Shown in pieces: positions 2,925 to 61,264 of a stretch of 64,000 nucleotides of DNA. A program made the position numbers and the translations under genes. Origin of the DNA: a virus (Duplodnaviria > Caudoviricetes); IMG/VR virus record IMGVR_UViG_2724679183_000002, positions 32,001 to 96,000 of that record; one strand, given 5' to 3'. The notes beneath the pieces were generated by a model. That model had not been told where the DNA came from, searched no databases, and saw nothing but the letters and a program-made list of their open reading frames with translations. Within the stretch, counting starts at the first letter, position 1, and each line of letters begins with the position of its first letter.

Positions 2925-2986
2925 ACACATAAGCAAAATCCCTCTGCCTAGAGGAATCTTGATTCTGCATAAAAGAGGGATTTCAT

Positions 2987-3964
2987 TTACACTTCAAATT
3001 TTGCTTTCTTATCTTGAATAGCGTCTTTGTTTACCTCTAGATAGTGATTTTTTGTTACGTCAGTGCCTTTATGGTTCAATAATTGAGAAACGTCCTCTAG
3101 ACTCATGCCACTGTGATACAAAAGGTTACTACCACTGTGCCTTAAATCATGACAATGTAATTCAGGAATATCAATTATTTCTCCAATTCTCTTTATCCAA
3201 TACCCTTGTAAAGTTCCGGTTTCAGCTTTCTTCCATGTGCCTCCGTACTTTGTTATAAAAAGGTATTCGCATTCAATGCCGTTTTCTGATCTGTACTCCA
3301 GCCATTCCTTAACAAGATCAATAGCTCTTTGAGAAGGGAAGAGGGTGACTTTATATCCTTCTTTTTCAATGACATCTTCCACCCGAAGTCTTTCAAAGTC
3401 AATTTGTTCAATTTTAACGTTGCTTATAGCATTAGCTCTGGCCATCGTGGAGAGACCAAACTCAAAGAAAAGCTCTAGCTGAATATTTTCCTTCTTTTTA
3501 AGTCCTTTTCTTATTTCTTCGACTTGATCTTTCGTTAAGAAGGTTTGTTTAATTTGAAGTTTTTCACCTGTTCCTGCCTTAGGTCTATCTAAGAAATCAA
3601 CTGGATTTTCTTTAATTTTGCGCTTTTTTCTTAAAAATAAAAAGAACGAGCTAATGCTGCTCATTCGTCGCTGAATTCTTCGTTCATTGTTTCCTAAAAC
3701 ACTAGTACAAAAGGCAACAAAGTCTTCAATCAAATCCACCATGTCATCTGGATCTTCTTTAATGATGTCCACAATGTACCGGTTATTGTAATTCTCTAAA
3801 ATGTATACCAGCCATTGATTGAAATCTGATTGATATCCAACTTTACTGGATTCCGAAAGGTTCATGTTTTTAAAGACAAAATACTTTCGAATTAATTCCG
3901 CATTTTTGGGGTTAATTTTGCTGACCTTTTCTTTTGTTGCATATGATATCTTTTTTCTGGCCAT
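2987..3964 (-). CDS. yomM: Tyrosine recombinase/integrase YomM
   Basis: Full catalytic set: R (TMARAN), K (EKEG), HxxR (HDLRH), H (LNHK), Y (NHYL). ATG 3964 with GGTGGTG RBS. Confidence 0.9.
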   Translation of the reverse strand: MARKKISYATKEKVSKINPKNAELIRKYFVFKNMNLSESSKVGYQSDFNQWLVYILENYNNRYIVDIIKEDPDDMVDLIEDFVAFCTSVLGNNERRIQRRMSSISSFFLFLRKKRKIKENPVDFLDRPKAGTGEKLQIKQTFLTKDQVEEIRKGLKKKENIQLELFFEFGLSTMARANAISNVKIEQIDFERLRVEDVIEKEGYKVTLFPSQRAIDLVKEWLEYRSENGIECEYLFITKYGGTWKKAETGTLQGYWIKRIGEIIDIPELHCHDLRHSGSNLLYHSGMSLEDVSQLLNHKGTDVTKNHYLEVNKDAIQDKKAKFEV

Positions 3965-3977
3965 TAATACACCACCG

Positions 3978-4394
3978 TTATTCTGTTTTAATGCCACTTG
4001 CATTTAAATCTTTTCTGATAGCGGCAACTAATCGTCCATCTTTTAAGGATTCTGCAGTATTCTTCATAAATGGGCGAGGTTTTCCATAACCATAACCGTA
4101 TTTATCAGGATATGTGTATCCTTGACCGGTCTCAATAACAGTAGCAACATCCTTCCCGTTATCCTCACGGGTATTATCTAAGGAGATTCCGTTAGATTCG
4201 TTTTCAGTTACAAAGGAGTCCTTTAAAAGAGATGTACGCTCATATACAAGCGGGTCATAGACGTCATACACATCAGATTGCACATGGGCTTGACCTGTTT
4301 TAATCATAGTGTTTTTTGTGTTTGATTGTTTTTGGAGGGCTTGCATTGCGGCAAATTCAATTAGCGCTGCTACTTCCTTAATGTTCTTGGCCAT
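3978..4394 (-). CDS. yomN: Putative tail completion/neck protein (YomN-like)
   Basis: 138 aa with a PRPF motif typical of HK97 gp10-like proteins. Synteny. Confidence 0.65.
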   Translation of the reverse strand: MAKNIKEVAALIEFAAMQALQKQSNTKNTMIKTGQAHVQSDVYDVYDPLVYERTSLLKDSFVTENESNGISLDNTREDNGKDVATVIETGQGYTYPDKYGYGYGKPRPFMKNTAESLKDGRLVAAIRKDLNASGIKTE

Positions 4395-4879
4395 TATTCA
4401 GCCTCTTTTTCACTGTCAATATCTTCAACCTTTTTAAGAATGATATTCTTTATCTCTTCTGGAGATACGTTTGAAAGTTTGTCTAAGTTCTCCTGCATCA
4501 TCTTTGTTGCTTCTCCAAATTTCTTCATGCTTTCTTCAGGGAAGCTATTAAGAATCAATGGGAAAAATTCAGAGTCCACAAGTTTAACGTACCACTTAAC
4601 TTTGTTTTTGATATCACTTGGAATGCCTAAGTCAGTAAATTCCTTAATGAGTGAGAAGAATGCCCATTGAACAGGGTTTATACTTTTAAAGTCAATGTTT
4701 TTTTCTTCGGCATTTTGTGAATCTGAAATTAATTCAGTAAGCATTTTGGTTAAGCGGGTAGGGGAGAAGTAAGGGTAAATATAGACATGAACGTCATCAG
4801 TGAGTTGTACTCTTTCTTTCTTGTCGTATTTGCTTACACTTTCTTCAATCAATCCAAGATTTAATTTTTTCGATGCCAT
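4394..4879 (-). CDS. yomO: YomO-like protein (possible tail assembly chaperone)
   Basis: 161 aa ORF with good RBS. Synteny. Confidence 0.6.
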   Translation of the reverse strand: MASKKLNLGLIEESVSKYDKKERVQLTDDVHVYIYPYFSPTRLTKMLTELISDSQNAEEKNIDFKSINPVQWAFFSLIKEFTDLGIPSDIKNKVKWYVKLVDSEFFPLILNSFPEESMKKFGEATKMMQENLDKLSNVSPEEIKNIILKKVEDIDSEKEAE

Positions 4880-4961
4880 CTCATTTCCTCCTTATATATC
4901 CTCTGAATACATTAAAAAAGACACCTCAATAGGGGAGAGGTGTCTAGATAAAACTTGTATT

Positions 4962-5810
4962 TTATTTATAATCTTCTTTTAGAATTTTTTCTGTAAAGGC
5001 TGGGTTGTTTGTAAATAGTCCATCAACTTTCAACTGCAGCATTTTGGATGTGAATGCTTTTTCATTATCAGCATCAAAAAACACATGCACTTTCATATTG
5101 TTTTTGTGGACTTTCTCAACAAAATCTTTATCAACCAATTTGGCATTAGGGCCAACAACGTTAGAATACTTTTTAATTTCGTTTAGCTTTGAATTGCTCA
5201 TATTCTTAACGTCTTCATCTTTTAAAAGTTGAACAAGAGGAACATCGCTGTTAAGCTTATGTAATTTCTTTAGACTTTTGTCACTGAATGATTCTAGAAC
5301 AACTTTGTTATTAGGGATTAGTTTATTTTTAGAGAGTATGTCAATTAACTTTTTCTCCATTATTAATTTGCCTTTGTTGTTTGTTCTAGTCTCGATATAA
5401 TACTTTGTCGTTTGTCCAAACTTTTTAATGATTTCTTCAATGGTTAAGATTTTTTGTCCTTTTCCAGTACGTAGCTTTTTAATCTGGTCTAATGTAAGAT
5501 CCTCAACTTCTCCTTTGCCGTCCGTGGTACGATCAACAGTCTTGTCATGGATTGCGACTAGATGACCGTCTTTGGTTTGTCGTAAATCAATTTCAATGTA
5601 GTCTGCTTTGTCTTTTATTGCTCGTTCATAGGAGAGTAGGGTATGTTCTGGCTCAATTTCCGATGCACCTCTGTGTGCAATCATTAACGGCTCGTATTTT
5701 TTACTGCTTCCTTTTCCATATCCCAAGGTAGATGCATCAACTTCGTTAAATGAACATCCTCCTAGTAAGACTAAAGCAATGATTAATGTTATAAGATTTA
5801 TTATTTTCAT
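4962..5810 (-). CDS. Glycerophosphodiester phosphodiesterase (GDPD) lipoprotein
   Basis: Lipobox LLGG|C. GDPD motifs IAHRGAS, EHTL, IEIDLRQTKDG, HD, DGLFTN. Confidence 0.9.
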   Translation of the reverse strand: MKIINLITLIIALVLLGGCSFNEVDASTLGYGKGSSKKYEPLMIAHRGASEIEPEHTLLSYERAIKDKADYIEIDLRQTKDGHLVAIHDKTVDRTTDGKGEVEDLTLDQIKKLRTGKGQKILTIEEIIKKFGQTTKYYIETRTNNKGKLIMEKKLIDILSKNKLIPNNKVVLESFSDKSLKKLHKLNSDVPLVQLLKDEDVKNMSNSKLNEIKKYSNVVGPNAKLVDKDFVEKVHKNNMKVHVFFDADNEKAFTSKMLQLKVDGLFTNNPAFTEKILKEDYK

Positions 5811-8128: not shown

Positions 8129-8201
8129 CAACTCCACCTCCTAAATCTGTATAAAAACTGACTTTTATTTAAAAAGGAGAGGGGAAGGATCCCCTCAAAA
8201 A

Positions 8202-13566: not shown

Positions 13567-13604
13567 TTGAAATACTCCTTTTATTGAAATTTATTTGTTA
13601 TGGA

Positions 13605-20699: not shown

Positions 20700-20738
20700 A
20701 AAAATCCCCCCATTGATTTGGATAAAATTAAAGTTTTA

Positions 20739-37560: not shown

Positions 37561-37612
37561 TAATCTAAGTGAAATGCATATTTTATCAAGCTTAAAAATG
37601 GGGGCAAGGAAA

Positions 37613-38654: not shown

Positions 38655-38738
38655 AAACCTAGTTCGTATATTTAAGATAAAACAACAATTTCAATTGAAT
38701 ATGATCAGATTATACTATGAAAAGGTGAGGAATTAAAC

Positions 38739-38984: not shown

Positions 38985-39023
38985 TATGAGTTCAAATAAA
39001 ACAGCGATTTTAAGGAGTGTTGA

Positions 39024-40253: not shown

Positions 40254-40327
40254 CTGAGCACTCTGAATAAAAACACCATTTCATGAAAAGTGGGTTCGGG
40301 CTGCCTCATGAGAACAGCCCTTTGCCA

Positions 40328-43046: not shown

Positions 43047-43153
43047 ATCTAGAGTAAAATAAGTGAGAAGTTTACAGAGGCCTGCAATTACGTGGAGGAA
43101 ATTGCAGGCAATTTTTATAAAATCGTACTTTCATAAAGAATAGGAGAAAAGAG

Positions 43154-43767: not shown

Positions 43768-43804
43768 ATAAAATCATTCTTTTATGAAGAGAGGGTTAAT
43801 CAAA

Positions 43805-44065: not shown

Positions 44066-44088
44066 GATAAAACTACGATTTTAAGGAG

Positions 44089-47429: not shown

Positions 47430-47497
47430 GGTTATTTTTGGAGACGCAATGAGGCCTTTTCCTCATTGTGTCTGTTTAAAATACGAATTTTAATCAT

Positions 47498-47554
47498 ATA
47501 AAAATAAAAAATAAGTATAAAGTGATTGACTGAAAATTGTTTGTTCTGTATTAT
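47498..47554 (+). promoter_or_regulatory. aimR promoter with SPBRE-like box
   Basis: Box at 47498-47519. TTGACT(47526)-17-TATTAT(47549). Confidence 0.7.
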
Positions 47555-48776: not shown

Positions 48777-48902
48777 ATGAAAAAAGTTGTTATGGCAGCA
48801 ATTATTTTAGGAGCACTTTTTGTCTCGTTTGCAGGAGTAAACACAGCCAGTCAACAAGCTTCTGGTAAATACGAAATAGCAGGAATGCCTCGGGGCGCAT
48901 AA
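48777..48902 (+). CDS. aimP: Arbitrium pre-pro-peptide AimP; mature peptide GMPRGA
   Basis: 41 aa MKKVVMAAIILGALFVSFAGVNTASQQASGKYEIAGMPRGA. Confidence 0.96.
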   Translation: MKKVVMAAIILGALFVSFAGVNTASQQASGKYEIAGMPRGA

Positions 48903-48964
48903 AGAACTTGACACATAATTGGGAAAATTATATTATTTACTTAATTAAATTAATTTGTGAAATC

Positions 48965-49000
48965 AAAAAGACGTTTGGCTCATTGAGCTAGGCGTCTTTT
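48965..49000 (+). terminator. Intrinsic terminator downstream of aimP
   Basis: AAAAGACGTTTGGCTC-ATT-GAGCTAGGCGTCTTTT. Confidence 0.75.
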
Positions 49001-49254
49001 GTGCTTTAAAGTTCACCACGAGATTAGTTCAATTTCGCATAACTAAGGGAAAATCGTCTAATTAAGGTAACTGGTGTACTTACATAACTCTAAAACCACT
49101 ATCAATAATTAAATACTGAAACAGCACATTCGAAAAAAGATTAAAAAGAATGTGCTATTTGTCGTTAAAACATCTTTACTTATTACGTTCAATGCATTAA
49201 AATGAATTTAGAAATCAAAAAGAAAAAATAAGTATTGTTTTAGGGGGAGGAATT

Positions 49255-49455
49255 ATGTCAGCTATAAAGTATTTACAAAGCAGCATGACATTACATAAAA
49301 CCATATATCAGAATAAGTTTGAAAATATTGCTCGTAACGATTTTTTTGCAAACGAAAAGAATTCAGAAAAAGAAAAAATAAAGAGAGGAGAATTCATCAG
49401 GAAGGAAATGACTAAAGGCTATTTGAAATTATTGAGTGCGTGTAAGGAGGGCTAG
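49255..49455 (+). CDS. yopM: YopM/SroA-like protein
   Basis: 66 aa, first gene after the aim locus. Confidence 0.6.
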   Translation: MSAIKYLQSSMTLHKTIYQNKFENIARNDFFANEKNSEKEKIKRGEFIRKEMTKGYLKLLSACKEG

Positions 49456-49460
49456 TACCC

Positions 49461-49793
49461 ATGCAAGTAGTGGACTTAAATGCTACTAAAAAGAAAGTAA
49501 ACAGTACTAAGAGCATTGACGAAAACTTTACTAATATGGTTGTCGAAACATACCTGAATAGCATATTGGACATAAGAAAAATCATACTTAATGCAAAGAC
49601 TCAAAATGACCTATTTAATGCCAAAATGGAAGTGAAAGCGTTGCTCCAGGATATAGATCGTATTCTCAGAGGTGGTGACGTGCTGTCTAGAAACACCGAA
49701 TGCAATCCCCATTATGCTTCGCTAATAACTTTTATGAAACACTTAAAAGCACATATCTCAATTGAATTTGAGCAGTTTATTTATAAACCGTAG
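49461..49793 (+). CDS. yopN: YopN/SroB-like lysogeny-promoting protein
   Basis: 110 aa helical protein. Synteny in the sro operon. Confidence 0.65.
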   Translation: MQVVDLNATKKKVNSTKSIDENFTNMVVETYLNSILDIRKIILNAKTQNDLFNAKMEVKALLQDIDRILRGGDVLSRNTECNPHYASLITFMKHLKAHISIEFEQFIYKP

Positions 49794-49848
49794 CTCTAAA
49801 GGCGGGCATTTATCCTTATTATACATATGGCTTTGTAAGGAGGATTCT

Positions 49849-50070
49849 ATGTCAAAGCGAATTAAAAAGCTGATGGAAGAACGCAACATCACAATAGAAC
49901 AGATTGCAAAAGAAACAATGATTAATATTGAAAAACTCAAGAAAATCATTAATGAACCGCATGAGGGAGATGTAACTTCCGTTAAGCTGATCGCTTTGGT
50001 GCTGGATGTCTCCATTGATGATCTAATTTATGATAACGATTTTAAACGGGAAGGAGGAAAGGAACAATGA
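49849..50070 (+). CDS. yopO: YopO/SroC XRE regulator
   Basis: HTH (LMEERNITIEQIAKET). AAGGAGG RBS. Confidence 0.75.
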   Translation: MSKRIKKLMEERNITIEQIAKETMINIEKLKKIINEPHEGDVTSVKLIALVLDVSIDDLIYDNDFKREGGKEQ

Positions 50071-51149
50071 GTGCAGAAATTAAACCTATTAAGGAATATA
50101 AAGTGTTTGATGACATTATGTCGTTTCTCTATAGCAAGGACATAGCCAGTAGCTCTGGGAACTCAAAGTATCAAACCAAGGACGCGCCTATGGTTTCTAA
50201 TACACGAAAAAATTATACAGGTGATATAAAGCAATTTTTCAGGATCTTAAAAGAAAAAGAAATCGAATATTTGTCTGAAAGTGATTTAACGATTACTAAA
50301 AGCGATCTGACAGGGTTTATTAAGTATCTTCAAAGTAAAGGGCTTGTAAACAAAACCATTAAAAGAAAATTAGCATCCCTAAAAATGCTTTATAAGTACC
50401 TTAGCTACGATTACAAAGAATTTATTGACTTAAGTGTTTTTGATTCTGTTGGAAAGTTGAAAACAGTTGAAAAAAACTGGGGAAGAACTAATAAAGAAGA
50501 AGCCGATCTTATCGCAGAAGACATGTATATTAACGAACGCCAAAAACCATTACTCAAAAAGCTTTGTGTGAAGGCAGCAGCAAGAACTTCTTTTCGTCTT
50601 AGTGCGTTATTAAGAATTAGATGGAGTGATTTTGAAATTGATTCAGCGACCGAGCATTATGTGGTTTCTGTTTTAGACAAGGGATCCAAAGTGGTGTCAA
50701 CGGGAATCAATAAATCTTTTTATGAAGAGCTTTTAGAACTAAAGAATAAAAATACAGTCGACACAGATTATGTTTTTAAAGGGCTTTCTGAGCAATCACT
50801 TAGACATTCTTTAAAACGTTCTAAAGAAAGGCTGGGTATTCCGCCAGAGAGGGACTTGAAATTTCACTCTTTTAAGGGAGTGGGTATTGACTATGTTTAT
50901 GAACACACTGGGCACGACATATTAGCTGCAAGAGAACAAGGAAATCATAGCAGTGTATCAACCACAGAACGCTATATGAGCAAAAGAAATGATATATCTA
51001 AAACTGCTGGTGTTATTATGGACGAGGAAATTGAAATAAACAAGCTTTATGAAGCTAAGAAAGAAGATTTTGTTTCTTTTTTTGAAAAAGCAGAGCCGGC
51101 TATACTGAATAAATTCATTAAATTCCTATCGGAATCTAATGGGTTCTAA
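50067..51149 (+). CDS. yopP: YopP/SroD tyrosine-recombinase-fold protein
   Basis: TSFRLSALL, KG, HSFK (R->K variant), GNHSS, ERY. Confidence 0.8.
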   Translation: MSAEIKPIKEYKVFDDIMSFLYSKDIASSSGNSKYQTKDAPMVSNTRKNYTGDIKQFFRILKEKEIEYLSESDLTITKSDLTGFIKYLQSKGLVNKTIKRKLASLKMLYKYLSYDYKEFIDLSVFDSVGKLKTVEKNWGRTNKEEADLIAEDMYINERQKPLLKKLCVKAAARTSFRLSALLRIRWSDFEIDSATEHYVVSVLDKGSKVVSTGINKSFYEELLELKNKNTVDTDYVFKGLSEQSLRHSLKRSKERLGIPPERDLKFHSFKGVGIDYVYEHTGHDILAAREQGNHSSVSTTERYMSKRNDISKTAGVIMDEEIEINKLYEAKKEDFVSFFEKAEPAILNKFIKFLSESNGF

Positions 51150-51239
51150 TTTTAATGATTATTATTTATTTTTCTCTTGATAATAAAGTTGCCCTTTGGT
51201 AACTTTATTTTAGCGACATAATATGAGGTGATACAAATA

Positions 51240-52631
51240 ATGACGGTGATATTTGACCAAGCTGCAAATGAGAAATTGCTCAGCGAAATGAGAGATGTGT
51301 TCTCTAGAAAAAAACATATTCGCTCTTTTATAAATGATGTCCATACAGTTATGGCTGAGTTTAAAATATCTCCTGGCTCAACACAAAAAATAATTAATGA
51401 ATTAGAAAAACCTGAGTTAGACCTTTCGAAAGAATATATGTACTTCTTAGCTAAATGTCTATTCAAGATTCTTGAATCAGAGAGGTTTAATCCTGCTAAT
51501 TATTTTACAGAAGCAGATATGCAAGAAATTGAAACGCTTTGGGAAGGCGAAGTAGAAGAAGAAATTAAATTTCCTTACACTTTTAAAAATGCCGTTAAAT
51601 ACTCAGAAAGTAACTTAACGTTCCAAATTACGGCTGAAGATCTTTATCGCCTATTTGAAAACAAACTTCTTCATTATAATCCAAATGCACAAAGAACAAA
51701 TAAAACCAAGAAGCTTGAAGGAACTGATATTGAAATACCTGTACCAGAGTTAAACAAAAAATCGGTGGAAGAAATAAAAGAGCTTTTTAAAGACGGCAAG
51801 TTGATTAGCTCAATGTTTACTTTTAATGCACGTGTAGGAAGTGCAGATGAAGGAATTGAGTTAATATATGACGAAGAAAGTATGTCTTTAACTATAACAG
51901 AAGGTACGATATTGGATGTATTGGATGGGTATCATAGGCTTATAGGGATAACTGCTGCAATTAGGCAACATCCTGAGCTCAAGCACTTACTAAAACGTGT
52001 GTTTAAAGTGGATATTTACAACTACACTCAAAAGCAGGCGAGAGAGCATTTTGGACAACAGAACACTATAAACCCTGTGAAAAAGTCCAAGGTTGCTGAG
52101 ATGAGTCAACATCACTTTTCAAATAAGATTGTTAAGTTTATTCAAGACAACAGTCTTATTGGTGATTACATTAAGACCAACGGTGATTGGATTAACCGGG
52201 GCCAAAACCAGTTAATTACCTTTTCCGATTTCAAGAAAGCAATTGAACGTAGCTATTACAAAAAGGATTTTAGTAATCAAGCGGATATCTTGAAAACAGG
52301 AAGGTATTTAAGTGCATTTTTTGATGCAATAGCCAATATTTATATTGATGAATTTTTAGGAAGTATTGCAGATGAACGTAAGCGGTCTCTTGTAAACAGC
52401 AATTTGTTCTTTAACGGGTATGTTCTCTTAGCGAAACGATTCCAGGAGTTAAATGTTTCAATTGATGACTTAGAAAATAAAGTAAAAGAAGTACTAAAAC
52501 CAATTGATTTTGGAAAAGACAACGAGCTGTGGAAGGAACTTGGGATTATTGATAATAACGGTAATCCGAAAGCTCCTCAAAAGATATGTGACTTCTTCAG
52601 AGATATAGAGATAGAACAGCAATTTAATTAG
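51240..52631 (+). CDS. yopQ: YopQ/SroE DGQHR/DndB-ParB-like protein
   Basis: VLDGYHR motif. Synteny. Confidence 0.75.
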   Translation: MTVIFDQAANEKLLSEMRDVFSRKKHIRSFINDVHTVMAEFKISPGSTQKIINELEKPELDLSKEYMYFLAKCLFKILESERFNPANYFTEADMQEIETLWEGEVEEEIKFPYTFKNAVKYSESNLTFQITAEDLYRLFENKLLHYNPNAQRTNKTKKLEGTDIEIPVPELNKKSVEEIKELFKDGKLISSMFTFNARVGSADEGIELIYDEESMSLTITEGTILDVLDGYHRLIGITAAIRQHPELKHLLKRVFKVDIYNYTQKQAREHFGQQNTINPVKKSKVAEMSQHHFSNKIVKFIQDNSLIGDYIKTNGDWINRGQNQLITFSDFKKAIERSYYKKDFSNQADILKTGRYLSAFFDAIANIYIDEFLGSIADERKRSLVNSNLFFNGYVLLAKRFQELNVSIDDLENKVKEVLKPIDFGKDNELWKELGIIDNNGNPKAPQKICDFFRDIEIEQQFN

Positions 52632-52639
52632 CTTAGGAG

Positions 52640-53629
52640 ATGTTTGATGCAATGTTCAATAGTGATATTAAGGAAAAGTATTTGGATTCTGTTACAGAAG
52701 CAGTAGCCCATCAATTAAGGCCTCTATTCTCAAAATCAGAGATAACAGAAAATCTTTATAAAAAAGATATTTATGACTTCACTTCAGTGCAGATTTTAGA
52801 ATTAATACGATCATTCGACCAAACAACAATTGGGAGTGTAAAAAGAACATTATCATTATTGTCAACGTATATCGATTGGGCAACATCTTATAATTTGAGC
52901 AAAGGTGCTGTTAACTTAGCGAGAACGATATCGAACGATGAGCTTTATGAGTGCCTAGGTGATAAAAAATTATACATCTCATTTAGTGAACTGGAAGACA
53001 TGCAAGACAAATTACTCAATTATCAATCGAAAGCAGTGCTCAGATGTTTATTTGAGGGTATATCAGGCATGGCTCATTCTGAACTACTTAGTCTTTCAAG
53101 GCAACAAATAGAAGAAGCAATGCTAAACGGCAACGTACTGACACTACATGACATAAAGAATGGAGATCGAAAGTTAAAAGTGAGTAGCGACTGTCTTATT
53201 ATTGCTTTAAATGCTTCGAAAGAAAGTACGTACCAATTAAAAAATGGAAGAGCCGAAGGACGAGCAAAAGAAGTTTCTTTAGTGGACAATGACTTTGTAA
53301 TTAAAACTAAAAAAACCAGAGGTAAAAATGAAGGTCAAGCAGGTAGACATATAATAACGAACTTAATAACAGATATCTCTGAGTTCTTTAAAATAAACTT
53401 CCTGACACCTAATACAATTGTAAGATCAGGACATCTTTATCGTGCATATCAGCTTTATAAAGAACGAGGTGTTATTGATAACGCTGTTAGATACCAAATC
53501 ATTGATGAATTTAATTTGAACGTAAATAGAGTCAGGGCTGTTTACAGCATGAAAGATTACATTAATGAAGAAGAGATAAAAAAGCTCTATGCAGAAGAAT
53601 TAGGCTTGAAAGATGAAGAATTAATTTAA
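52640..53629 (+). CDS. mrpR: Master repressor MrpR (YopR/SroF), degenerate recombinase fold
   Basis: MFNSDIKEKYL...LFEGI...LTPNTIVRSG. Catalytic residues degenerate. Last gene of the operon. Confidence 0.85.
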   Translation: MFDAMFNSDIKEKYLDSVTEAVAHQLRPLFSKSEITENLYKKDIYDFTSVQILELIRSFDQTTIGSVKRTLSLLSTYIDWATSYNLSKGAVNLARTISNDELYECLGDKKLYISFSELEDMQDKLLNYQSKAVLRCLFEGISGMAHSELLSLSRQQIEEAMLNGNVLTLHDIKNGDRKLKVSSDCLIIALNASKESTYQLKNGRAEGRAKEVSLVDNDFVIKTKKTRGKNEGQAGRHIITNLITDISEFFKINFLTPNTIVRSGHLYRAYQLYKERGVIDNAVRYQIIDEFNLNVNRVRAVYSMKDYINEEEIKKLYAEELGLKDEELI

Positions 53630-53641
53630 ATAAGTATTCGC

Positions 53642-53671
53642 CACCCAGCAAAAATAAACTGGGTGTTTTTT
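53642..53671 (+). terminator. Intrinsic terminator
   Basis: CACCCAG...CTGGGTG followed by a T tract. Confidence 0.7.
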
Positions 53672-53855
53672 CTCGCTTTAAAAACAAAATATAAGCACAT
53701 TAATAATAGTCGTTTAAAAAATTTTGATATTCGACAAAAATAGACATAATAAGTCAAAATAAGTTCTTTCCACCACTAGCAACATGTAGTAAAATAGTTG
53801 TGTAAACCATACGGTTTACTCAGGAGGAGACCAAGACATTTGTCTTAGTCGAAAT

Positions 53856-54080
53856 TCAATGCCTTTCAACCTTGAATTCATAGAGGTCTTCCACATTACA
53901 ATCTAATGCATCAGCGATTCTTATTGCTGTTCTAATTGTCATCTCGACTTTTTTCATCCGGTTATAATCGCTTAGTTGTTGCTTCTTTATTCCAGTTATT
54001 TCAGCAAGTTCATTGATTGTAATGTCTTTCTTTCTACAAAGTTCAGGTATCAAGCATTGCCCGATCTCAACTTTAATCAT
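53856..54080 (-). CDS. yopS: YopS XRE regulator
   Basis: 74 aa HTH (ITINELAEITGIKKQQLSDY). Confidence 0.8.
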   Translation of the reverse strand: MIKVEIGQCLIPELCRKKDITINELAEITGIKKQQLSDYNRMKKVEMTIRTAIRIADALDCNVEDLYEFKVERH

Positions 54081-54202
54081 TATCGGACATCCTCCTGCTA
54101 GTTCTGTTATGGAAAGACATAATACATATCATACCATACGATGACTTCAAATAACCACTAGCGTTACACTCACAATAAATGTATAATGTTAATAAACAAA
54201 AC

Positions 54203-54216
54203 AGAACGCTTGTTCC
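54203..54216 (+). promoter_or_regulatory. LexA (SOS) box upstream of yopT
   Basis: aGAAC-GCTT-GTTCc matches the Bacillus GAAC-N4-GTTC box. Lies just downstream of TG-TATAAT. Confidence 0.65.
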
Positions 54217-54262
54217 CTTGTAAGGTTGTCAAAGAGAAAAAACATAGTATAGGAGAATGAGG

Positions 54263-54478
54263 ATGGCAGGTTATTTGAACAATGTATCATTAAATCTTGA
54301 AATAGTACTTAAAAACACAGCAAAAAATGAAGAGGTATCTCAAACTATTGCCGAAAGACTTTGTGAAAAATTAATGGTTACCAGGGAAGTAACTTTTTTG
54401 CAAGCAGATGGCACTGTTGAAAAATTTAAATTGAATGACATTGATTATGAGATATCTAATACTGAAGAAATACTTTAA
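54263..54478 (+). CDS. yopT: YopT-like protein
   Basis: MAGYLNN..LNLEIVLKN...FL.ADG.VE.FKL matches the recalled YopT. Confidence 0.75.
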   Translation: MAGYLNNVSLNLEIVLKNTAKNEEVSQTIAERLCEKLMVTREVTFLQADGTVEKFKLNDIDYEISNTEEIL

Positions 54479-54553
54479 ATAAAATAAATAGGAAGACTCC
54501 ATTGAACCACAGCACGAATTATTGCAGCGTAGTTGGAGCTTGTAGGTGAACAC

Positions 54554-54751
54554 GTGAAATTATTTGTTGATCTTCAGGATTACAACACCATTAATCTCAA
54601 ACTAACTAAAAAGGTTTTAACATCTGAACAGTACCAATTCCTTTTGAACTTTAATGGAAAACAAGTAGACATTACGGTTTCAATAACGCCAGAAAATCTG
54701 GTGAAAATAAGAGATCATATCAATGAAATAATATTTAAATTTGCCGAATAA
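54554..54751 (+). CDS. YopU-like protein
   Basis: 65 aa. Synteny. Confidence 0.55.
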   Translation: MKLFVDLQDYNTINLKLTKKVLTSEQYQFLLNFNGKQVDITVSITPENLVKIRDHINEIIFKFAE

Positions 54752-54869
54752 AAATCAAATTCGATCATTTGGAAAAAATATGATCGAATTTGATTGACAA
54801 AAACAATTTTGTGGGTTACCTTATAGTTAAATATAAAAAATAAGCATAAGGAGGATCGTAGATAAAGCG

Positions 54870-55049
54870 ATGTTGCTTGATGAAAAGCTGAATAAATTAA
54901 AAGGCGCATATGACACACTCCTCATTCATAAGAGTAAAAATGAAATGAGAAGAGTTGTAGGATTGTTTCACTCAATAATTGATTATGCGTATGAAGGCAT
55001 GTACATAGCTGAGGCACAAATCGACCAAGAAGGAGAGGCAAATGATTAG
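54870..55049 (+). CDS. yopV: YopV-like protein (59 aa)
   Basis: MLLDEKL...FHSIIDYAYEGMYIAE. AAGGAGG RBS. Confidence 0.7.
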   Translation: MLLDEKLNKLKGAYDTLLIHKSKNEMRRVVGLFHSIIDYAYEGMYIAEAQIDQEGEAND

Positions 55050-55284
55050 TATAAAAAGTCCTAAGATTAATACAATTACACTAACTGACTCTAACAAAGC
55101 AAGTTTAGTTAGAAGAATTATAGAAAAAGAGAAACTCGGTTATGAATGCACTCATCCAATAACAGAGAAGTTCTTTGAGTTTGTTGCTACCGGTTCTGCT
55201 AAAAGGGGTAGCAAATACCGAAGGGAATACATAGGGTATACAAAATTTTTCACCAAAATGAAACTTATTAAAAATAAAATATAA
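55042..55284 (+). CDS. Hypothetical protein
   Basis: 80 aa, overlapping the yopV stop. Confidence 0.55.
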   Translation: MISIKSPKINTITLTDSNKASLVRRIIEKEKLGYECTHPITEKFFEFVATGSAKRGSKYRREYIGYTKFFTKMKLIKNKI

Positions 55285-55354
55285 GTATGTAAAATGTAAG
55301 TTTTATCAAGATTGAAATAGGCCGGCAGGCGATAGTGAGGAGTGAAGTATTATT

Positions 55355-55591
55355 ATGAAGAATTTATGTTGTGAAACGTGTGGGTTGGATACCCATGAAA
55401 ATACAACGCCTATCTTTGAAAAGCCTTTAAGATTTGCTTTTCGATCAGATATCAAGCAGTTAGAACAAAATACTGACGACCATAGAAAACAAGAAAATAT
55501 CTGTTTAGACTGTTTCACTGCTGAATTGCAACAGGTTAGCAAGGATTGTAAAACACGGTGCAAATTTAAATCAAAGGAGAGCGGACAATGA
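55355..55591 (+). CDS. Cys-rich small protein
   Basis: CETC...CLDC. GAGGAG RBS. Confidence 0.55.
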   Translation: MKNLCCETCGLDTHENTTPIFEKPLRFAFRSDIKQLEQNTDDHRKQENICLDCFTAELQQVSKDCKTRCKFKSKESGQ

Positions 55592-56256
55592 ATCTACAAA
55601 AAATGTTCGAAATGCAAAAGGTGCTGGATGATCGGATCATCAAAGAAAAGGGGCTTGAGGGGCGGGACTTGCTGCCGAACCTCATTCTTGCTCTACAGGT
55701 GGAGCTGGCCGAGTGTGCGAATGAATGGCGCGGCTTTAAGCATTGGAGTGATGACCGGGAGCCGCGTACGAAAATAGAGCATTTTTGTCCAACATGTGAT
55801 GGCACTGGCGATGAAAATCATGATATTAATTTGCAATATCTCGAAGAAGGGCATGCAGTTGAACCATATTCCGAATGCCAAGACTGCAACGGCTCTGGGA
55901 AGTTAGGTGAAACAAATCCTCTACTTGAGGAATACGTTGACTGCCTGCACTTTATTTTGAGTATTGGGAATCACATCAATTATAAAATCGTCTCTACAAA
56001 AGAATTACAAGCGTTCTTTTGTGAAATTAATCTGACGGAACAATTCGCCTCATTATTTGAGGAAATCGTATATATGGCACAAGCAACGAGAGGTCATTCT
56101 CCAGCGGAACAAGCGTTAGCAAAGTATAGGTATGTATCTCTATTTCAAATATTCATAGGCTTGGGAGTAATGCTCGATTTTACCACTGAACAAATCGAAG
56201 CCGCCTACATGGAGAAAAACGCCGTCAATCATCAGCGGCAGCAGGAGGGGTATTGA
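55588..56256 (+). CDS. Dimeric dUTPase (dUTPase_2) with Zn-finger insert
   Basis: Q..LD, VELAECANEWRGFKHW, EEYVDCLHFILS, Y.EKN.VNHQRQ..GY. Insert CPTCDGTG...CQDCNGSG. Confidence 0.88.
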   Translation: MNLQKMFEMQKVLDDRIIKEKGLEGRDLLPNLILALQVELAECANEWRGFKHWSDDREPRTKIEHFCPTCDGTGDENHDINLQYLEEGHAVEPYSECQDCNGSGKLGETNPLLEEYVDCLHFILSIGNHINYKIVSTKELQAFFCEINLTEQFASLFEEIVYMAQATRGHSPAEQALAKYRYVSLFQIFIGLGVMLDFTTEQIEAAYMEKNAVNHQRQQEGY

Positions 56257-56639
56257 TGGAGAAATTTGATCTTAAATTAATCGGCGGACAGCTGGTAATT
56301 GATATGGGACAAACAGCAGATGACAGATTCAAGCATATAGGTTATAACGGCCAGCCTGCTATTTATGATTTTGATGAAATCTGTGTACCAATTATCGGCA
56401 CAGTGGAGTTAAGCGATGAGCAAATAAAGAAGATTGGGCTTGCTTATACAAACGGTGATAAATGTGATTACTGTGAAGAATACACGGACAAGGTGCGGCC
56501 CTCTCCTTTTATGGCCGATGCGGGTGCTTCAATGTGTAAAGAGTGTTGGGACGGAACAAAAGAAGAATATGCCACATCCACCGATGAGCATATTGGGGAT
56601 TTTGAGGATTACCCACACTGGAAGGAGGGCGCGGAATGA
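56253..56639 (+). CDS. Hypothetical protein with CxxC pairs
   Basis: CDYC...CKEC. Confidence 0.6.
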   Translation: MMEKFDLKLIGGQLVIDMGQTADDRFKHIGYNGQPAIYDFDEICVPIIGTVELSDEQIKKIGLAYTNGDKCDYCEEYTDKVRPSPFMADAGASMCKECWDGTKEEYATSTDEHIGDFEDYPHWKEGAE

Positions 56640-56833
56640 GAAGTCCAACAGAGAAACAATTGGGATTAATTCGAAACATGGAGCAATATATAAGTGCAAG
56701 ATTCACCGGTAATACAATAAGAGAAGCAAGCGAATTTATTACAAATCATATGGATGAATACCAAGAAGAGAAAGAAATGGCCGATGAATCAAAGGTTTTA
56801 TATGATGATGTTTACTATGAAGAAAGCTGGTAA
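56636..56833 (+). CDS. Hypothetical protein
   Basis: PTEKQL..I...T..EASEFI motif. Confidence 0.6.
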   Translation: MRSPTEKQLGLIRNMEQYISARFTGNTIREASEFITNHMDEYQEEKEMADESKVLYDDVYYEESW

Positions 56834-56951
56834 CCTTGCCTGAAGCATAGAGAATCTAAATAAAAGATGCATTTTAAAGAGATACCTTGTTTGGAGGAAT
56901 AAAACCATATAAACTTTAGTAGAGACAATTAAATACAAGGGAGAAAAATAT

Positions 56952-58373
56952 ATGAATAAAAAAGCCATAAAAAGACCAAAAGTGTTTATATCATATTGTT
57001 GGACTTCTGAACAACATGAAGAATGGGTTTTAGATCTAGCAATACGATTGTCTGAGGGGGATGGCATAGAGGTTATACTTGATAAGTGGGATTTAAAAGA
57101 AGGACAAGATAAATATGCATTCATGGAGAGTATGGTTACTTCTAAAGAAATAGATAGGGTATTAATCATTTGTGATTCTGGATATCAAAATAAAGCTGAT
57201 AATAGGACAGGTGGAGTAGGGGATGAAACTCAAATAATTACCCCGAATGTTTATTCGGATACAAAACAAGAAAAGTTTATTCCTATTATTGCAGAACGAG
57301 ATGAAAAAGGAAATGCTTTCATTCCTGCTTACGTTAAGAATAGAATTTATATTGAACTATCTAATGAAGAAACTTTTGAAGAAAATTATGAAAAATTGAT
57401 TAGAAATATAATGAAAGCACCAAAGTATAAAAAACCACCTCTGGGTGAACTACCATTATATTTATTTGATGAAGAAATAAACCACTTTAAAACTAAAAAC
57501 ATTATTAGAAAAATGAGAAACGCTCTTGAAAAAAATCCTTCAAGGATTAGTTTCCTTTCAGAAGAATTTATTGAAGCATTTGTTGAATCTTTAAAAGGGT
57601 TACAAATTCAAAATGAAAAAATTGAAAATAATCAAATCGACGATTTAATTAAAGAAGGAATTGATAAGTCATTGCCATTAAAAGATGACTTTATAAATTA
57701 TTTAAAAGTACTAATTGAGGCAGACAAGGTTGATTCGGATGCTTTGGCAGAGCTCTTTGAAAGAATATATGTTTTCACAGAAATACAAAAAGGAATGGAT
57801 CATTGTCATCCGGAACAATTTGATCACTTTAAGTTTATACTTCATGAAATCGTTATATACACCTTCACTCTACTGTTCAAGTATAAAATGTACAGCATTA
57901 TTGCTGACCTATTAGATATGGAATACAATTTGTCATTTAGGGGAAGTTCTGAAAACTTAACTGCATTCAGATTTTATATAACATCTCTAGATAAAAGAAA
58001 CAAGAAGCTTAAATTGAATAGGGTAAGTTATCATTCTGAATTATTGATGCAAAGATCGAACGACTTAAGAGACGAATTGATAGTAGCTGATGTCTTGCTT
58101 TTTCATTTACTAAGAATGAGAAGTGTAAACTTTGATTGGTTTCCAATCACATATATCCATAATCTTTTTCATTTAAACATTAAGTTTTTAAGTAAATTAA
58201 AGTCTGAAAAGTTTGCCCGAAAAAATTTAAGCGTATTTGGTGTTGACACTATTGAAGAATTAAAAAATAAGATTAAGAACTTTGGAAGGCCTGTATCATT
58301 TCAATCAACTTTTGACAGTGCTCCTATTCCAAGTCAATTTATAAAACCAGAAGATATTGCAACCAAGCCATAA
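56952..58373 (+). CDS. SEFIR/TIR-domain protein (putative antiphage effector)
   Basis: PKVFISY.W....HEEWV..LA.RL...GIEVILDKWDL..GQD...FME and GGVG.E. Very AT-rich. Confidence 0.85.
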   Translation: MNKKAIKRPKVFISYCWTSEQHEEWVLDLAIRLSEGDGIEVILDKWDLKEGQDKYAFMESMVTSKEIDRVLIICDSGYQNKADNRTGGVGDETQIITPNVYSDTKQEKFIPIIAERDEKGNAFIPAYVKNRIYIELSNEETFEENYEKLIRNIMKAPKYKKPPLGELPLYLFDEEINHFKTKNIIRKMRNALEKNPSRISFLSEEFIEAFVESLKGLQIQNEKIENNQIDDLIKEGIDKSLPLKDDFINYLKVLIEADKVDSDALAELFERIYVFTEIQKGMDHCHPEQFDHFKFILHEIVIYTFTLLFKYKMYSIIADLLDMEYNLSFRGSSENLTAFRFYITSLDKRNKKLKLNRVSYHSELLMQRSNDLRDELIVADVLLFHLLRMRSVNFDWFPITYIHNLFHLNIKFLSKLKSEKFARKNLSVFGVDTIEELKNKIKNFGRPVSFQSTFDSAPIPSQFIKPEDIATKP

Positions 58374-58469
58374 TAGAATAAAGGCGTCAATACATATCAA
58401 TATAATGACGCCTTAAATATTTTTATATTTAATAAAAGGATTATTTCATCCGGAAGGGAAGAGAGCAAA

Positions 58470-59197: not shown

Positions 59198-59238
59198 ATG
59201 AAATCGTGATTTTAAATAGATTAGGAGGAAAAAAGATT

Positions 59239-59649
59239 ATGAAATCAATTCAAGAAATTATTGCACAAGAGCCAGTATTTTTAAATGATTGGAGCAATAA
59301 AGAGGAAGTTTTATCTGATTTTGATGGTGAACAATGGAATTATTGCAGTGACAAAAAAGTTGACAGAGATGTAAATATCCTCTTCGCATCATACGGGCAT
59401 GCAAATTATAGCGGAAACGCTTGGGTGCTTTTTGAAAAAGACGGAGAGTTATACGAAGTAAATGGGAGTCATTGCTCTTGTTACGGATTAGAAGGTCAAT
59501 ATTCGCCAGAAGTTGTAGTATTGTCCGAATTGGAAAACAGACTTGTAAATGGGACGTTTGGAGAAGATGACTGGTCGGATAATAATTTCAAAAAAGAATT
59601 GTGTCACTTCTTAGATGTTGGATTTAAATTAAACAGAGAAGAATTTTAA
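59239..59649 (+). CDS. Conserved phage protein
   Basis: AGGAGG RBS. YSG.AWVLF..DG.LYEVNGSHCSCYGLE motif. Confidence 0.65.
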   Translation: MKSIQEIIAQEPVFLNDWSNKEEVLSDFDGEQWNYCSDKKVDRDVNILFASYGHANYSGNAWVLFEKDGELYEVNGSHCSCYGLEGQYSPEVVVLSELENRLVNGTFGEDDWSDNNFKKELCHFLDVGFKLNREEF

Positions 59650-59688
59650 ATAAAAGATAGTTTTTAATCAGTTATAGGAGGAAATTGA

Positions 59689-60186
59689 ATGGACATAAAC
59701 ATAAACATTAAACGGTTATCACCAGATGTCGTGATTCCCAAATATGGACACGTCCTCGACGCAGGCTTCGATCTAGTAGCGTCAGAGGATGTAATTATCG
59801 AACCGGGTGAAACGAAGTTAGTTCCGACTGGACTCGCCCTCGATATCCCATATGGATACATTCTCGAAATTAGGCCACACTCAGGAATTACGTTAAAAAC
59901 GAGGTTGCGCGTTCAGCTTGGCATGGTCGATTCCGTCTATAACGGAGAAATCGGTGTAATCGTCGATAATATCTGGCGAGAAGAATGCGGATCAACGCCA
60001 AGATTGTGTATTCTAAATGGAAAGACAGAGTATCTTGACGGTATTTATTATCCGAAATTCACATACCTGATCCGCAAAGGTGATCGTATCGCCCAAGGCG
60101 TAATCAAGCCAATTGAGTATGCTGTGTTTACGGAAGCTGCTGCACTTGGCGATAGCGATCGAGGTACGAGTCAATTTAAAGTCTGA
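59689..60186 (+). CDS. Trimeric dUTPase with degenerate motifs II and V
   Basis: AGFDL, RPHSG, GMVDSVYNGEI, GDRIAQ. C-terminal DRGTSQF instead of RGxxGFGSTG. Confidence 0.8.
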   Translation: MDININIKRLSPDVVIPKYGHVLDAGFDLVASEDVIIEPGETKLVPTGLALDIPYGYILEIRPHSGITLKTRLRVQLGMVDSVYNGEIGVIVDNIWREECGSTPRLCILNGKTEYLDGIYYPKFTYLIRKGDRIAQGVIKPIEYAVFTEAAALGDSDRGTSQFKV

Positions 60187-60468
60187 ATCGACGTTTTTCC
60201 TCAAAGTAATCGGGATACTTATTCTGTTTAGATTTTGATTTGTATACAAAGCAGATTACAGCAGCTAGGATATAGTCCATGACTTTATCAAAAGTCCAAT
60301 TTGCGAACAAATCCAGAAGAAATTTCATTAGATTTCACCTCCGAGACAAAACTGTCCAGTCTCTTTTATATGGCATGCGTATGACATGCCTTCATTAATA
60401 AAGAGTGAAATGTAATATGAAAATCTAAAAAGAATTGAAAAAAACATAAAAAAATAGAGGCGGTATAA

Positions 60469-61251
60469 ATGACTAAAATTAACGAAAAGATTCATGTGCT
60501 AACCGACGAAAGTTTAGGCAGAATCAAACGCGAATATGTAGAGGTCGATAGGAAGGCAGATGTGGGAGATCGAGTTGTTGCAGATGGAGACTATCGGGAG
60601 GTCGTAGCCATTTCTTCGAGGCGTGGCATTTGTTTAGACGGAGATATATGTCTAGGAATTCCCCATTCTTACCGTACTCTTGAACCGACCAGCATTGTCC
60701 ACATTGACGGTGAGCGCTATAAAATGGTCGACCGAAAGGCAAAAGTAGGCGAGAAAGTAATCATTACCGAGAGAGTAGATTTTTATATGGACGACATGAC
60801 TGTTGGAAAAGTATATGAAGTTATAAATATTAGTGGAGAAGAAGATGTTGAGGTAATGGATGACACCGAGGAAAAAGCGACTGCATCGAAGAGCGGTTAT
60901 CTAAGCCTCGTCTCACTGACTAAAGAAAATAAGCACCAAAAACCTAAAGCAAAGACAAGAGGATACAAAGAAGTCAAAAATCTTATACATCATGAATTAA
61001 GTATCACGAGGCAAGATATTCAAGAAATGATTAATGTTGCAGTAATAAATGAAATCAAGAAAATGTCCGAGGCAGGAGAGTTTTATAAAATAGCAAGCTC
61101 AAAAATTGACTCGATTATTAAAGATGGATTCAGTGACAGAGGGAATTTGCTATATGGATTTAAGGAGAGGGTGTCACAAACAATTTCTGATGAGGTAGGA
61201 AAACGTATCGCCAATAATTTAAACATAAATGTGGAATTGAAAAATCAATAA
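60469..61251 (+). CDS. Hypothetical phage protein (repeated VDRKA.VG modules)
   Basis: 260 aa. Confidence 0.65.
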   Translation: MTKINEKIHVLTDESLGRIKREYVEVDRKADVGDRVVADGDYREVVAISSRRGICLDGDICLGIPHSYRTLEPTSIVHIDGERYKMVDRKAKVGEKVIITERVDFYMDDMTVGKVYEVINISGEEDVEVMDDTEEKATASKSGYLSLVSLTKENKHQKPKAKTRGYKEVKNLIHHELSITRQDIQEMINVAVINEIKKMSEAGEFYKIASSKIDSIIKDGFSDRGNLLYGFKERVSQTISDEVGKRIANNLNINVELKNQ

Positions 61252-61264
61252 AATAGTTATTTTA

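Follow-up and report, generated by a model that had tools for sequence, protein, structure and literature searches.

Intergenic palindromes with conserved centres as candidate addressed crossover joints in SPbeta-like Bacillus phages

A 64,000-nucleotide stretch of the virus record IMGVR_UViG_2724679183_000002 (the window; bases 32001-96000 of 140,932 bp, with the whole record called G000 below) carries repeated copies of the palindrome TRAAA-N6-TTTYA at its gene junctions. We hold with moderate confidence that these palindromes are protein-recognized crossover joints, each with its own address in the six-base centre, resembling natural heterospecific lox sites. This reading is carried by the strict spacing and two-fold symmetry of the site, by centres that keep their order along related genomes even where both neighbours have been replaced, and by mosaic boundaries that fall at the site edges. 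Coordinates are those of the window unless stated otherwise. Five Spbetavirus genomes were compared (G000, SPBc2, phi3T, Goe12 and SPbetaL4), with 2S-4 as a sixth and distant one, and five further IMG/VR records (G001-G005; G003 rated complete, G005 a fragment) were chosen for their high local motif density.

A strictly spaced palindrome between genes

The window contains 20 exact copies of the pattern against 3.36 expected (standard deviation 1.88, maximum 12), a number that was reached in 0/100 dinucleotide shuffles. All 18 copies listed in the initial annotation are present at the positions it gave, and two more were found at 13568 and 63912. The copy at 13568 sits among the head genes, where none had been noted before. 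That all copies lie between genes proved true for 18/20, which have at most 4 coding bases, whereas 40268 falls within a weak open reading frame (ORF) call of 47 amino acids and 63912 within the overlap of two ORF calls. In the whole of G000 there are 40 copies, dispersed over the 140-kb genome and concentrated in the variable early region. Of these, 31 are intergenic by the same limit of 4 coding bases and lie in 18.3 kb of intergenic DNA, where Markov models of order 1-4 trained on intergenic DNA predict 1.0-1.7 copies, which bears out the proposed intergenic enrichment.

The distance between the arms is strict. When spacers of 0-12 were tested in the intergenic DNA of G000, N6 gave 31 copies and every other length 0-3; the enrichment of N6 only was repeated in four relatives, and in 2S-4 the count was 34 for N6 versus 5-11 at other lengths. 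The arms are equally unforgiving, since near-copies as a class are indistinguishable from chance: with 49 one-mismatch copies, the window holds 69 sites with at most one mismatch against 56.8 expected, and 10/100 shuffles reach 69. Among six near-copies that had been listed before, only 43494 and 44344 are within one mismatch, and 44344 aligns to an exact copy in SPbetaL4.

The motif is similarly frequent in related phages. Counts of the motif and of a backwards-pattern control were 34/5 in phi3T, 40/2 in Goe12, 45/4 in SPbetaL4, 34/2 in 2S-4 and 36/3 in SPBc2, and in the five additional IMG/VR records they were 51/12, 18/5, 53/5, 24/4 and 18/3, the 53 copies being those of G003. Judged from these sequences, the palindrome is a signature of the phage family. 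An extended pattern gave at least 222 versus at least 42 occurrences in viral contigs among the matches listed, which in a motif-ascertained set is a pointer only. One 2529-base IMG/VR contig has four extended-pattern copies at steps of about 100 bp (1329, 1432, 1535 and 1718), and this looks like a tandem array, unlike gene junctions. No description of the motif was found in the literature searched, with the 1999 SPbeta genome paper, Brady et al. 2023 and the supplements out of reach.

The palindrome as a site on duplex DNA

The anatomy of the site was derived from 145 unique intergenic sites of the five Spbetavirus genomes, oriented by their neighbouring genes. Their consensus is a symmetric 28-bp palindrome, TYTnnATAAAA-N6-TTTTATnnARA (11-6-11), in which the inner 5 bp are invariant by the definition of the search and the outer positions are 72-93% conserved. 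The degeneracy is mirrored as well, with Y at -5 and R at +20. In 2S-4, the outer flank of the sites deviates from this consensus. The 11-6-11 arrangement over 28 bp, with N6 as the only enriched spacing, agrees with the earlier suggestion of a tyrosine-recombinase core-site geometry.

The two arms show no covariation. Watson-Crick pairs are at or below independence at all 12 mirrored position pairs of the 145 sites (at -5/+20, for example, 54 were counted and 60.8 expected), and the variable arm position has 10 A/C, 7 G/T and 0 G/C combinations. A selected hairpin or cruciform would covary, and a reader of single strands has no need of complementary arms. By principles of site symmetry, independent half-sites at a fixed spacing point to duplex DNA read by a two-fold symmetric protein pair. 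We infer that a symmetric protein reads the palindrome as double-stranded DNA and that no RNA hairpin is involved, which disfavours the RNA signal that the initial annotation had offered as an alternative.

With respect to the genes, the left-arm TAA is itself the stop codon in 33/119 co-directional sites, and in 17/119 the stop lies 0-2 nt upstream, in keeping with the overlap with stop codons that had been noted. The next start codon follows 12-35 nt downstream of the site in 74/119 co-directional cases, with a mode of 19-24. Certain copies are found after operon ends or beside terminator-like hairpins, and 26/145 sites lie between convergent or divergent genes. In the SPBc2 record (AF020713.1), at least one palindrome, at 116406-116431, was annotated as a stem_loop by the depositors; the sequence was thus noticed in 1999 and interpreted as a hairpin.

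Centres as junction-specific addresses

It had been stated that the spacer differs in every copy. Within a genome this holds, with 0 repeats among 229 sites of six genomes, whereas across genomes the centres are conserved. Absence of repeats (about 1.9 expected) is a weak hint only, and so is the absence of palindromic centres (0/229 versus about 3.6 expected). Of the 40 sites of G000, 27 have a centre that recurs exactly in the five other genomes, which makes 76 shared centres in all (3.7 expected). Pairs of sites with the same centre in the same orientation number 228 among the five Spbetavirus genomes, compared with about 3.7 expected by arithmetic from the site counts; 226/228 are collinear, and same-centre sites all point one way.

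This conservation extends to sites whose surroundings have changed. When 400 bp on each side were compared by blastn (word 7) and tblastx at E 1e-3, the 228 pairs showed flank similarity on both sides in 81 cases, on one side in 94 and on neither in 53. The last group involves about 20 different centres; the 16-mer is 15-16/16 identical, and exact identity extends 0-9 nt (median 1) beyond it on either side. A 16-mer would naturally be retained in fixed order with both neighbours replaced if crossovers took place within the site, between like-addressed copies. Base-exact 16-mers amid replaced neighbours at about 20 junctions in a fixed order are hard to obtain by random illegitimate recombination plus selection.

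Short isolated matches were counted for comparison. A crude control with an ungapped-flank criterion gave 1650 isolated exact matches of 15-24 bp, of which 88 contained the motif, and a stricter flank test left 81 islands between SPBc2 and Goe12 (5 with the motif) and 54 between G000 and SPBc2 (4 with the motif). Non-motif islands are mostly chance A/T-rich matches or copies of operator-like boxes. Motif islands lay between the correct flanking blocks in 9/9 cases, as compared to 7/126 for other short exact islands, and synteny alone sets the two kinds apart.

Mosaic boundaries at the sites

Breakpoints were taken as the ends of blocks of at least 150 bp and at least 93% identity in pairwise comparisons of the five Spbetavirus genomes. 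Among 527 block ends overall, 278 were intergenic, and 71/278 fell inside the 28-bp spans, which make up 5.2% of the intergenic bases; the expectation that breakpoints among relatives coincide with the motif is supported. The starts of blocks cluster at offsets -2 to 0, their ends at +15/+16. Of the site-bearing intergenic regions in the four closer genomes, 17/28, 19/29, 19/34 and 23/37 contained a breakpoint, versus 29/139, 31/137, 25/122 and 28/128 of the site-free ones. For 36/40 distinct junction comparisons, a full site is present in both genomes. The centres were identical in 32 of the 40, differed by one base in 2 and by two or more in 2, while in 4 the partner had no exact site. This does not fit the earlier idea that the spacer is irrelevant and heterology tolerated. 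Junctions joining different centres pair SPBc2 87599 with SPbetaL4 101310 and 95129 with 107440. Upstream of aimR, three unrelated left flanks, each bearing a terminator, meet the same site.

Metagenomic relatives show boundaries at the same places. Logan contigs of four metagenome runs, taken from different studies, were aligned to 37001-57000, of which the uncovered parts carry no meaning; the phage itself occurred in one DNA run only. Homology of phi3T (98.2%) stops at 37585, the last base of the site at 37570, and contig pieces of relatives end there in two runs. Other pieces end at 38691, 40281 and 47493 or start at 40266 and 37580. Contigs also join 39782 to 40266, 43785 to 44067 and, in two runs, 46236 to 47477; the joints, whose sides are only 20-28 letters long at 88% likeness, are read only as ends of homology. 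Of the 30 joint ends shown, 5 are within 2 nt of the edge of an exact copy. The joints of two runs that land on 47477 coincide with the start of Goe12 and SPbetaL4 homology at 47477 and 47475, respectively.

Proposed exchange and candidate proteins

In the reading that we favour, the invariant arms TRAAA/TTTYA, together with the weaker outer consensus TYTnnA/TnnARA, would be read on duplex DNA by a two-fold symmetric protein pair, and the six-base centre would act as a junction-specific address whose order is kept along SPbeta-like genomes. When related genomes meet in one cell, as phage and prophage or by co-infection, crossover would occur preferentially inside sites of the same address. Genes or blocks between two addresses would be swapped while gene order, stop codons and ribosome-binding sites remain undisturbed, the left arm often providing the upstream stop and the right arm being followed by the next ribosome-binding site. 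Binding of the arms by a protein is suggested by their symmetry and spacing, and the position of the boundaries suggests that crossovers take place inside the site and that boundaries there are not merely tolerated.

For the catalyst, we tentatively put forward a site-specific Xer-like tyrosine recombinase that would cut at the borders of the centre in the manner of heterospecific lox systems. That phage or host enzymes produce the crossovers by short-homology recombination, at a site marked by a protein, seems rather unlikely. In its most specific form the proposal becomes a natural recombinase-mediated cassette exchange, in which some 35-45 ordered heterospecific Xer-type core sites would work with a phage-encoded Xer-like recombinase; this is possible but doubtful. 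The enzyme could be a YopP/SroD-family protein made from the repressor operon, or the recombinase encoded in a variable slot beside the site at 2970, and like-addressed sites of a prophage and an incoming relative would recombine with synteny, stops and translation starts preserved.

SPbeta integrates by means of the serine recombinase SprA, and yopP is listed in the literature as a core gene with a XerC-type domain and no assigned role. The YopP-like protein of the window combines an integrase catalytic domain with a SAM-like one. Its residues R177, K205, H267, H294 and Y303 recur in all of 10 homologues, the most distant of which has 24% identity. A profile search found XerA, XerD and XerH as nearest solved relatives, and a single-sequence phmmer search against the PDB gave no match. 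The profile of this family detects a member in 9/11 motif-rich records (G000, SPBc2, phi3T, Goe12, SPbetaL4, 2S-4, G001, G002 and G004). Genes with PF00589 occur in 10/10 motif-rich records searched (G005 lay outside the search), and this co-occurrence carries little weight, PF00589 being widespread among temperate phages. The recombinase adjoining site 2970 has HxLRH and H..Y motifs as read by eye. The content of its slot varies among SPBc2, Goe12 and SPbetaL4; Goe12 has a recombinase there, and no PF00589 match was found in the slot of SPBc2, phi3T or SPbetaL4. YomM, which had been named for recombination assays, is not supported as a tyrosine recombinase, as no PF00589 was detected for it in SPBc2.

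Several points weigh against addressed crossover. Neither end is at a site in 216/290 replacements and in 18/23 simple indels; among the other replacements, 68 have a site at one end and 6 at both. The breakpoint counts are redundant, with genome pairs sharing events and one event counted several times, and part of the association of breakpoints with sites may be regional confounding due to the concentration of sites in the early region. The counts on whether each arm travels with its own flank, 11/94 versus 6/94, do not separate the two outcomes. Gene calls, on which the intergenic classification depends, are from our own heuristic (223 genes, 87% coding across G000). In the laboratory hybrid Hyb2 of phi3Ts and SPbeta, the two resolved crossovers lie inside parent-identical stretches of 1.4 kb and 4.9 kb and look like ordinary homologous recombination; they show that such recombination operates, and speak neither for nor against the sites (Hyb1 and Hyb3 were compared at block level only).

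The candidate proteins add to these points. The second catalytic arginine is a lysine in most YopP-like proteins (HSFK for HxLR), being kept in the phi3T protein and two distant homologues. No YopP-like profile match was found in the complete record G003, with its 53 copies, or in the fragment G005; MrpR_C and HU were likewise undetected in G003, and DndB/YopQ (PF14072) was undetected in 2S-4 with its 34 motif copies. No candidate partner is therefore universal among the motif-rich records. The binder is possibly a host protein, or different lineages may use different recombinases.

Alternative explanations

The palindrome could instead be a dispersed operator, or a docking site, at which a dimeric DNA-binding protein regulates, silences or organises the genome, and boundaries would lie at site edges only since recombinants must keep the site and the packed genes. 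We judge this unlikely, though it is the main rival. It suits the symmetry of the palindrome, the strict spacing and the absence of covariation, as well as the fixed distance to the start codon and the majority of mosaic boundaries, which are off the sites. Proteins that might act in this way are YopQ/SroE, by analogy with KorB on OB, and the small Cro/C1-type helix-turn-helix proteins (YopO- and YopS-like), two genes of this kind flanking the repressor operon. YopQ has PF14072, found in G000, phi3T and SPBc2, and is described with a ParB_N_Srx-type domain (PMC8612738), and SroE is required for lysogeny by a mechanism given as unknown (bioRxiv 10.1101/2025.11.27.690993). A protein that reads only the arms, however, leaves unexplained the conserved centres between unrelated flanks (53 pairs), the stop of identity 0-2 nt from the 16-mer, and boundaries that keep to the site edge even beside a non-coding terminator hairpin, as with the three left flanks upstream of aimR. 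The lack of a PF14072 match in 2S-4 also argues against docking, as do the finding of PF02195 in 0/4 genomes, the sites inside operons, and sigma-A promoter-like sites that are at chance level in 37000-48000 (44 versus 45.0 expected).

A further alternative is the integron-like system that the initial annotation proposed: each single-gene cassette would be bounded by attC-like palindromes, and an integrase indifferent to the spacer would cut it out as a circle and insert it at another place. Single genes often lie between two sites, e.g., 43769/44068, a segment whose ends 43785 and 44067 are joined in a relative's contig; the phage has genes for tyrosine recombinases, and two junctions join different centres. 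Cassette-like indels were nevertheless absent, 0/23 simple indels having a site at both ends and 5/23 at one end, and none of the five insertions beside a site carried a second one. No centre is duplicated within a genome and 226/228 pairs are collinear and unshuffled, the sites of 16-28 bp lack the pairing covariation of a folded attC, and they occur genome-wide with no array beside an integrase. Integron mechanics are thus very improbable. From the earlier interpretation, the recombination-related joints and the recombinase-site geometry stand, and the integron mechanics and the irrelevance of the centre do not.

Still less credence can be given to an intercistronic signal at the RNA level, i.e., a hairpin or a protein-binding element acting in processing, translational coupling or re-initiation. 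A place after a stop codon and ahead of the following ribosome-binding site would suit such a signal, and one AF020713 copy carries the stem_loop annotation. Against it stand the lack of covariation with A-C mismatches tolerated at the variable arm position, a consensus with dyad symmetry that a single-strand reader does not need, and the copies that follow operon ends or separate convergent and divergent genes. A stem of 5 bp that is all A/U is also very weak.

Identity with SPBRE, the operator of MrpR/YopR/SroF, is the least credible explanation. SPBRE is a repeated intergenic SPbeta element bound by this recombinase-fold protein (PMC10516654), and in SPBc2 a palindrome lies 17 nt from a probable SPBRE upstream of aimR. 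The ChAP-seq analysis gave 10 peaks, in promoter regions (PMC10516654), as opposed to 36 palindromes in SPBc2, and SroF binds as a monomer to a long asymmetric box, of which it reads 24 of 26 bp and which is not the same in phi3T and SPbeta (bioRxiv 10.1101/2025.11.27.690993). The palindrome is the same across phages whose MrpR/SroF proteins share 27% identity. By eye, the published 26-bp phi3T box lacks the palindrome pattern, and with roughly 25 approximate copies in phi3T it is a repeat in its own right. SPBc2 likewise has a separate repeat, AAAAATATGTATA, upstream of yorE, yorZ and yopK/aimR, genes that are named as SPBRE-bearing; it is probably SPBRE, a comparison made without the SPBRE logo. 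The known repressor operator, which had been an alternative identity, is thus a different sequence.

Operators and promoters near the palindromes

At phi3T 125052-125091 and 105167-105206 and at SPBc2 113664 and 132747, the palindrome stands directly before an SroF-type box (TTTAGA then ATAAAAATAAAAT), and its outer right arm overlaps the start of the repressor box. G000 itself has a repeated A-rich box that differs from both the phi3T SroF box and the SPBc2 AAAAATATGTATA repeat, with copies at genome positions 63004, 65266, 79498, 100817, 115395 and 129718. The copy at 47498 of the window (79498 of the genome) lies between site 47477 and the promoter-like TTGACT-17-TATTAT of aimR. This box is the probable MrpR/SroF operator of the phage, distinct from the palindrome.

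Two promoter identities were rejected for the palindrome. YonO uses one late start site (PMC5467207), as compared to dozens of palindromes in both genome arms. The sigma-A identity fell with the chance-level count given above for 37000-48000.

Comparison with known systems

Whether the joints of phage mosaics result from random illegitimate recombination plus selection or from dedicated linkers has long been debated, and the modular theory of phage evolution postulated linker sequences. The SPbeta-like phages are a model family in which base-precise joints are found at a strict protein-type site whose centre behaves as a conserved address. The origin of the joints can thereby be tested directly, since SPbeta and phi3T are amenable to genetics in Bacillus subtilis 168. 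Should a recombinase be responsible, site-specific recombination would gain a new natural class of system, the conserved and unexplained YopP/SroD recombinase would have a function, and genome engineering would have dozens of ready orthogonal sites; if cassette exchange is true, phage mosaicism would have a dedicated enzymatic mechanism. Even without an enzyme, the address map supplies common coordinates by which SPbeta-like prophages can be compared and annotated.

Heterospecific lox and FRT sites have the same arms and different centres of 6-8 bp, and only like centres recombine. The palindromes resemble the sites used in recombinase-mediated cassette exchange in having identical arms and differing centres, with the segment in between exchanged without deletion or inversion. 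They differ in that the engineered method employs Cre or Flp and two or three sites, while the palindromes would form a natural array of about 35-45 with putative enzymology. Integron attC sites are 57-141 bp long and fold as single strands, and circular cassettes are inserted into an array next to intI. Gene-sized units and recombinase-type sites just past stop codons are common to both systems; attC folding, circles and the intI array are not found with the palindromes.

The pdif sites of Acinetobacter plasmids alternate in orientation. They have distinct XerC and XerD arms and depend on host Xer, whereas the phage-borne palindromes have symmetric arms and centres that are unique, ordered addresses. 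Both are 28 bp with an 11-6-11 layout and occur in many copies in accessory regions, where they bound gene modules that different replicons share (Mindlin et al., 2019; PMC6449649). The layout of dif is also 11-6-11, and the palindrome arms end in an A-tract beside the centre as do difH and difSL, the arms of XerH and XerS sites ending in GAAAA beside the central region (PMC5357621).

The promoter-early stem-loops (PeSL) of T4-type phages (Arbiol et al., 2010; PMC2839356) are likewise short, conserved and intergenic, and the variable regions of small genes in these large genomes hold many of them. Both elements mark the ends of genes replaced between relatives; recombination at or between the elements accounts for the replacement with PeSL and would do so with the palindrome. 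PeSL combines a strong sigma-70-type promoter with a terminator stem-loop, unlike the palindrome, which has no promoter signal beyond chance and no paired stem; furthermore, PeSL recombines as a stretch of homology and forms mini-circles, whereas palindrome copies have their own conserved centres, and neither the indels nor a search for repeated centres gave a sign of recombination between different copies. SPBRE and its phi3T counterpart Phi3TRE also recur between the genes of these phages, in places next to the palindrome, and their reader has a tyrosine-recombinase fold (PMC10516654; bioRxiv 10.1101/2025.11.27.690993). They are asymmetric, bound by a monomer, phage-specific and devoted to repression only, while the palindrome is symmetric, family-wide and three to four times commoner.

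Coordinates and genomic context

The sites and associated features of the window are collected in Table 1.

Table 1. Junction palindromes and associated features, in window coordinates
Feature	Position	Strand	Centre	Remarks
Junction palindrome	2970..2985		GAGGGA	Exact copy; abuts stop of recombinase gene 2987-4003; centre also in SPBc2, phi3T, Goe12, SPbetaL4; relatives' homology stops at site edge
Second, canonical tyrosine recombinase	2987..4003	-		PF00589, E 1.3e-21; late region, adjoins site 2970
Junction palindrome	4949..4964		CTTGTA	Overlaps stop of minus-strand gene 4962-5810, then hairpin; centre without match in five other genomes
Junction palindrome	8152..8167		ACTGAC	Between terminator-like hairpin and next ribosome-binding site, minus strand; centre matched in 2S-4 only, relatives have ACTGTC at that place
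Junction palindrome	13568..13583		TACTCC	Among head genes; exact copy; same centre and conserved flanks in four relatives
Junction palindrome	20723..20738		TTAAAG	Exact copy; centre in SPBc2, phi3T, Goe12; flanks without similarity to Goe12
Junction palindrome	37570..37585		TGCATA	Follows helicase gene; centre in five genomes
Junction palindrome	38678..38693		CAACAA	Exact copy; contig piece ends at 38691; both flanks without resemblance to phi3T or Goe12
Junction palindrome	38997..39012		CAGCGA	Exact copy; Goe12 homology block begins at 39011
Junction palindrome	40268..40283		ACACCA	Contig pieces/joints start at 40266 (two runs), end at 40281
Junction palindrome	43118..43133		TCGTAC	Centre also in phi3T, Goe12
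Junction palindrome	43769..43784		TCATTC	Left border of one-gene segment 43785-44067
Junction palindrome	44068..44083		CTACGA	Right border of one-gene segment 43785-44067
Junction palindrome	47477..47492		TACGAA	Upstream of aimR; 5 nt before the phage's repeated operator-like box
Repeated A-rich box, ~22 bp	47498..47519	+		Repeated 11-mers
YopP/SroD-like Xer-type tyrosine recombinase, candidate site partner	50067..51149	+		Pfam PF00589, PF02899
YopQ/SroE-like DndB/ParB-fold protein, rival candidate binder	51240..52631	+		PF14072, E 1.1e-13
MrpR/SroF master repressor	52652..53629	+		PF22823, PF22822; binds a different, long asymmetric box
Junction palindrome	55290..55305		TGTAAG	In relatives, two different left and two different right flanks
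Junction palindrome	56861..56876		GATGCA	Neither flank like SPBc2, phi3T or SPbetaL4
Junction palindrome	58433..58448		GGATTA	Centre also in SPbetaL4
Junction palindrome	59199..59214		TCGTGA	SPbetaL4 homology stops 3 nt inside site
Junction palindrome	59651..59666		GATAGT	Centre in five genomes; neither flank like four relatives
Junction palindrome	61249..61264		TAGTTA	TAA is the upstream stop; all four relatives' blocks begin at 61247
Junction palindrome	63912..63927		CAGAGA	phi3T and SPbetaL4 blocks begin 2 and 9 nt before

The record, classified in IMG/VR as a provirus, is an SPbeta-like Bacillus phage. A 10-kb piece gave only patchy matches to phi3T, SPbeta-type isolates and Goe12, and the YonO-like gene is 85-87% identical to its counterparts in relatives. 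Late genes lie on the minus strand up to about 28 kb and early genes on the plus strand beyond. The window encodes AimR, a YopP-like protein of the integrase family, a DndB-like YopQ, MrpR, two small helix-turn-helix proteins and an HU-like protein.

Two small reading frames were also observed. A probable gene of 85 amino acids at 37613-37870 starts 27 nt past site 37570; it was dropped by the gene caller for overlap and has 90% DNA identity to a stretch of phage 2S-4. The second, at 46115-46246, is an ORF of 43 amino acids without a Pfam family; its identity of 79-91% among all five phages compared, with the distant 2S-4 among them, is unusually high for the region.

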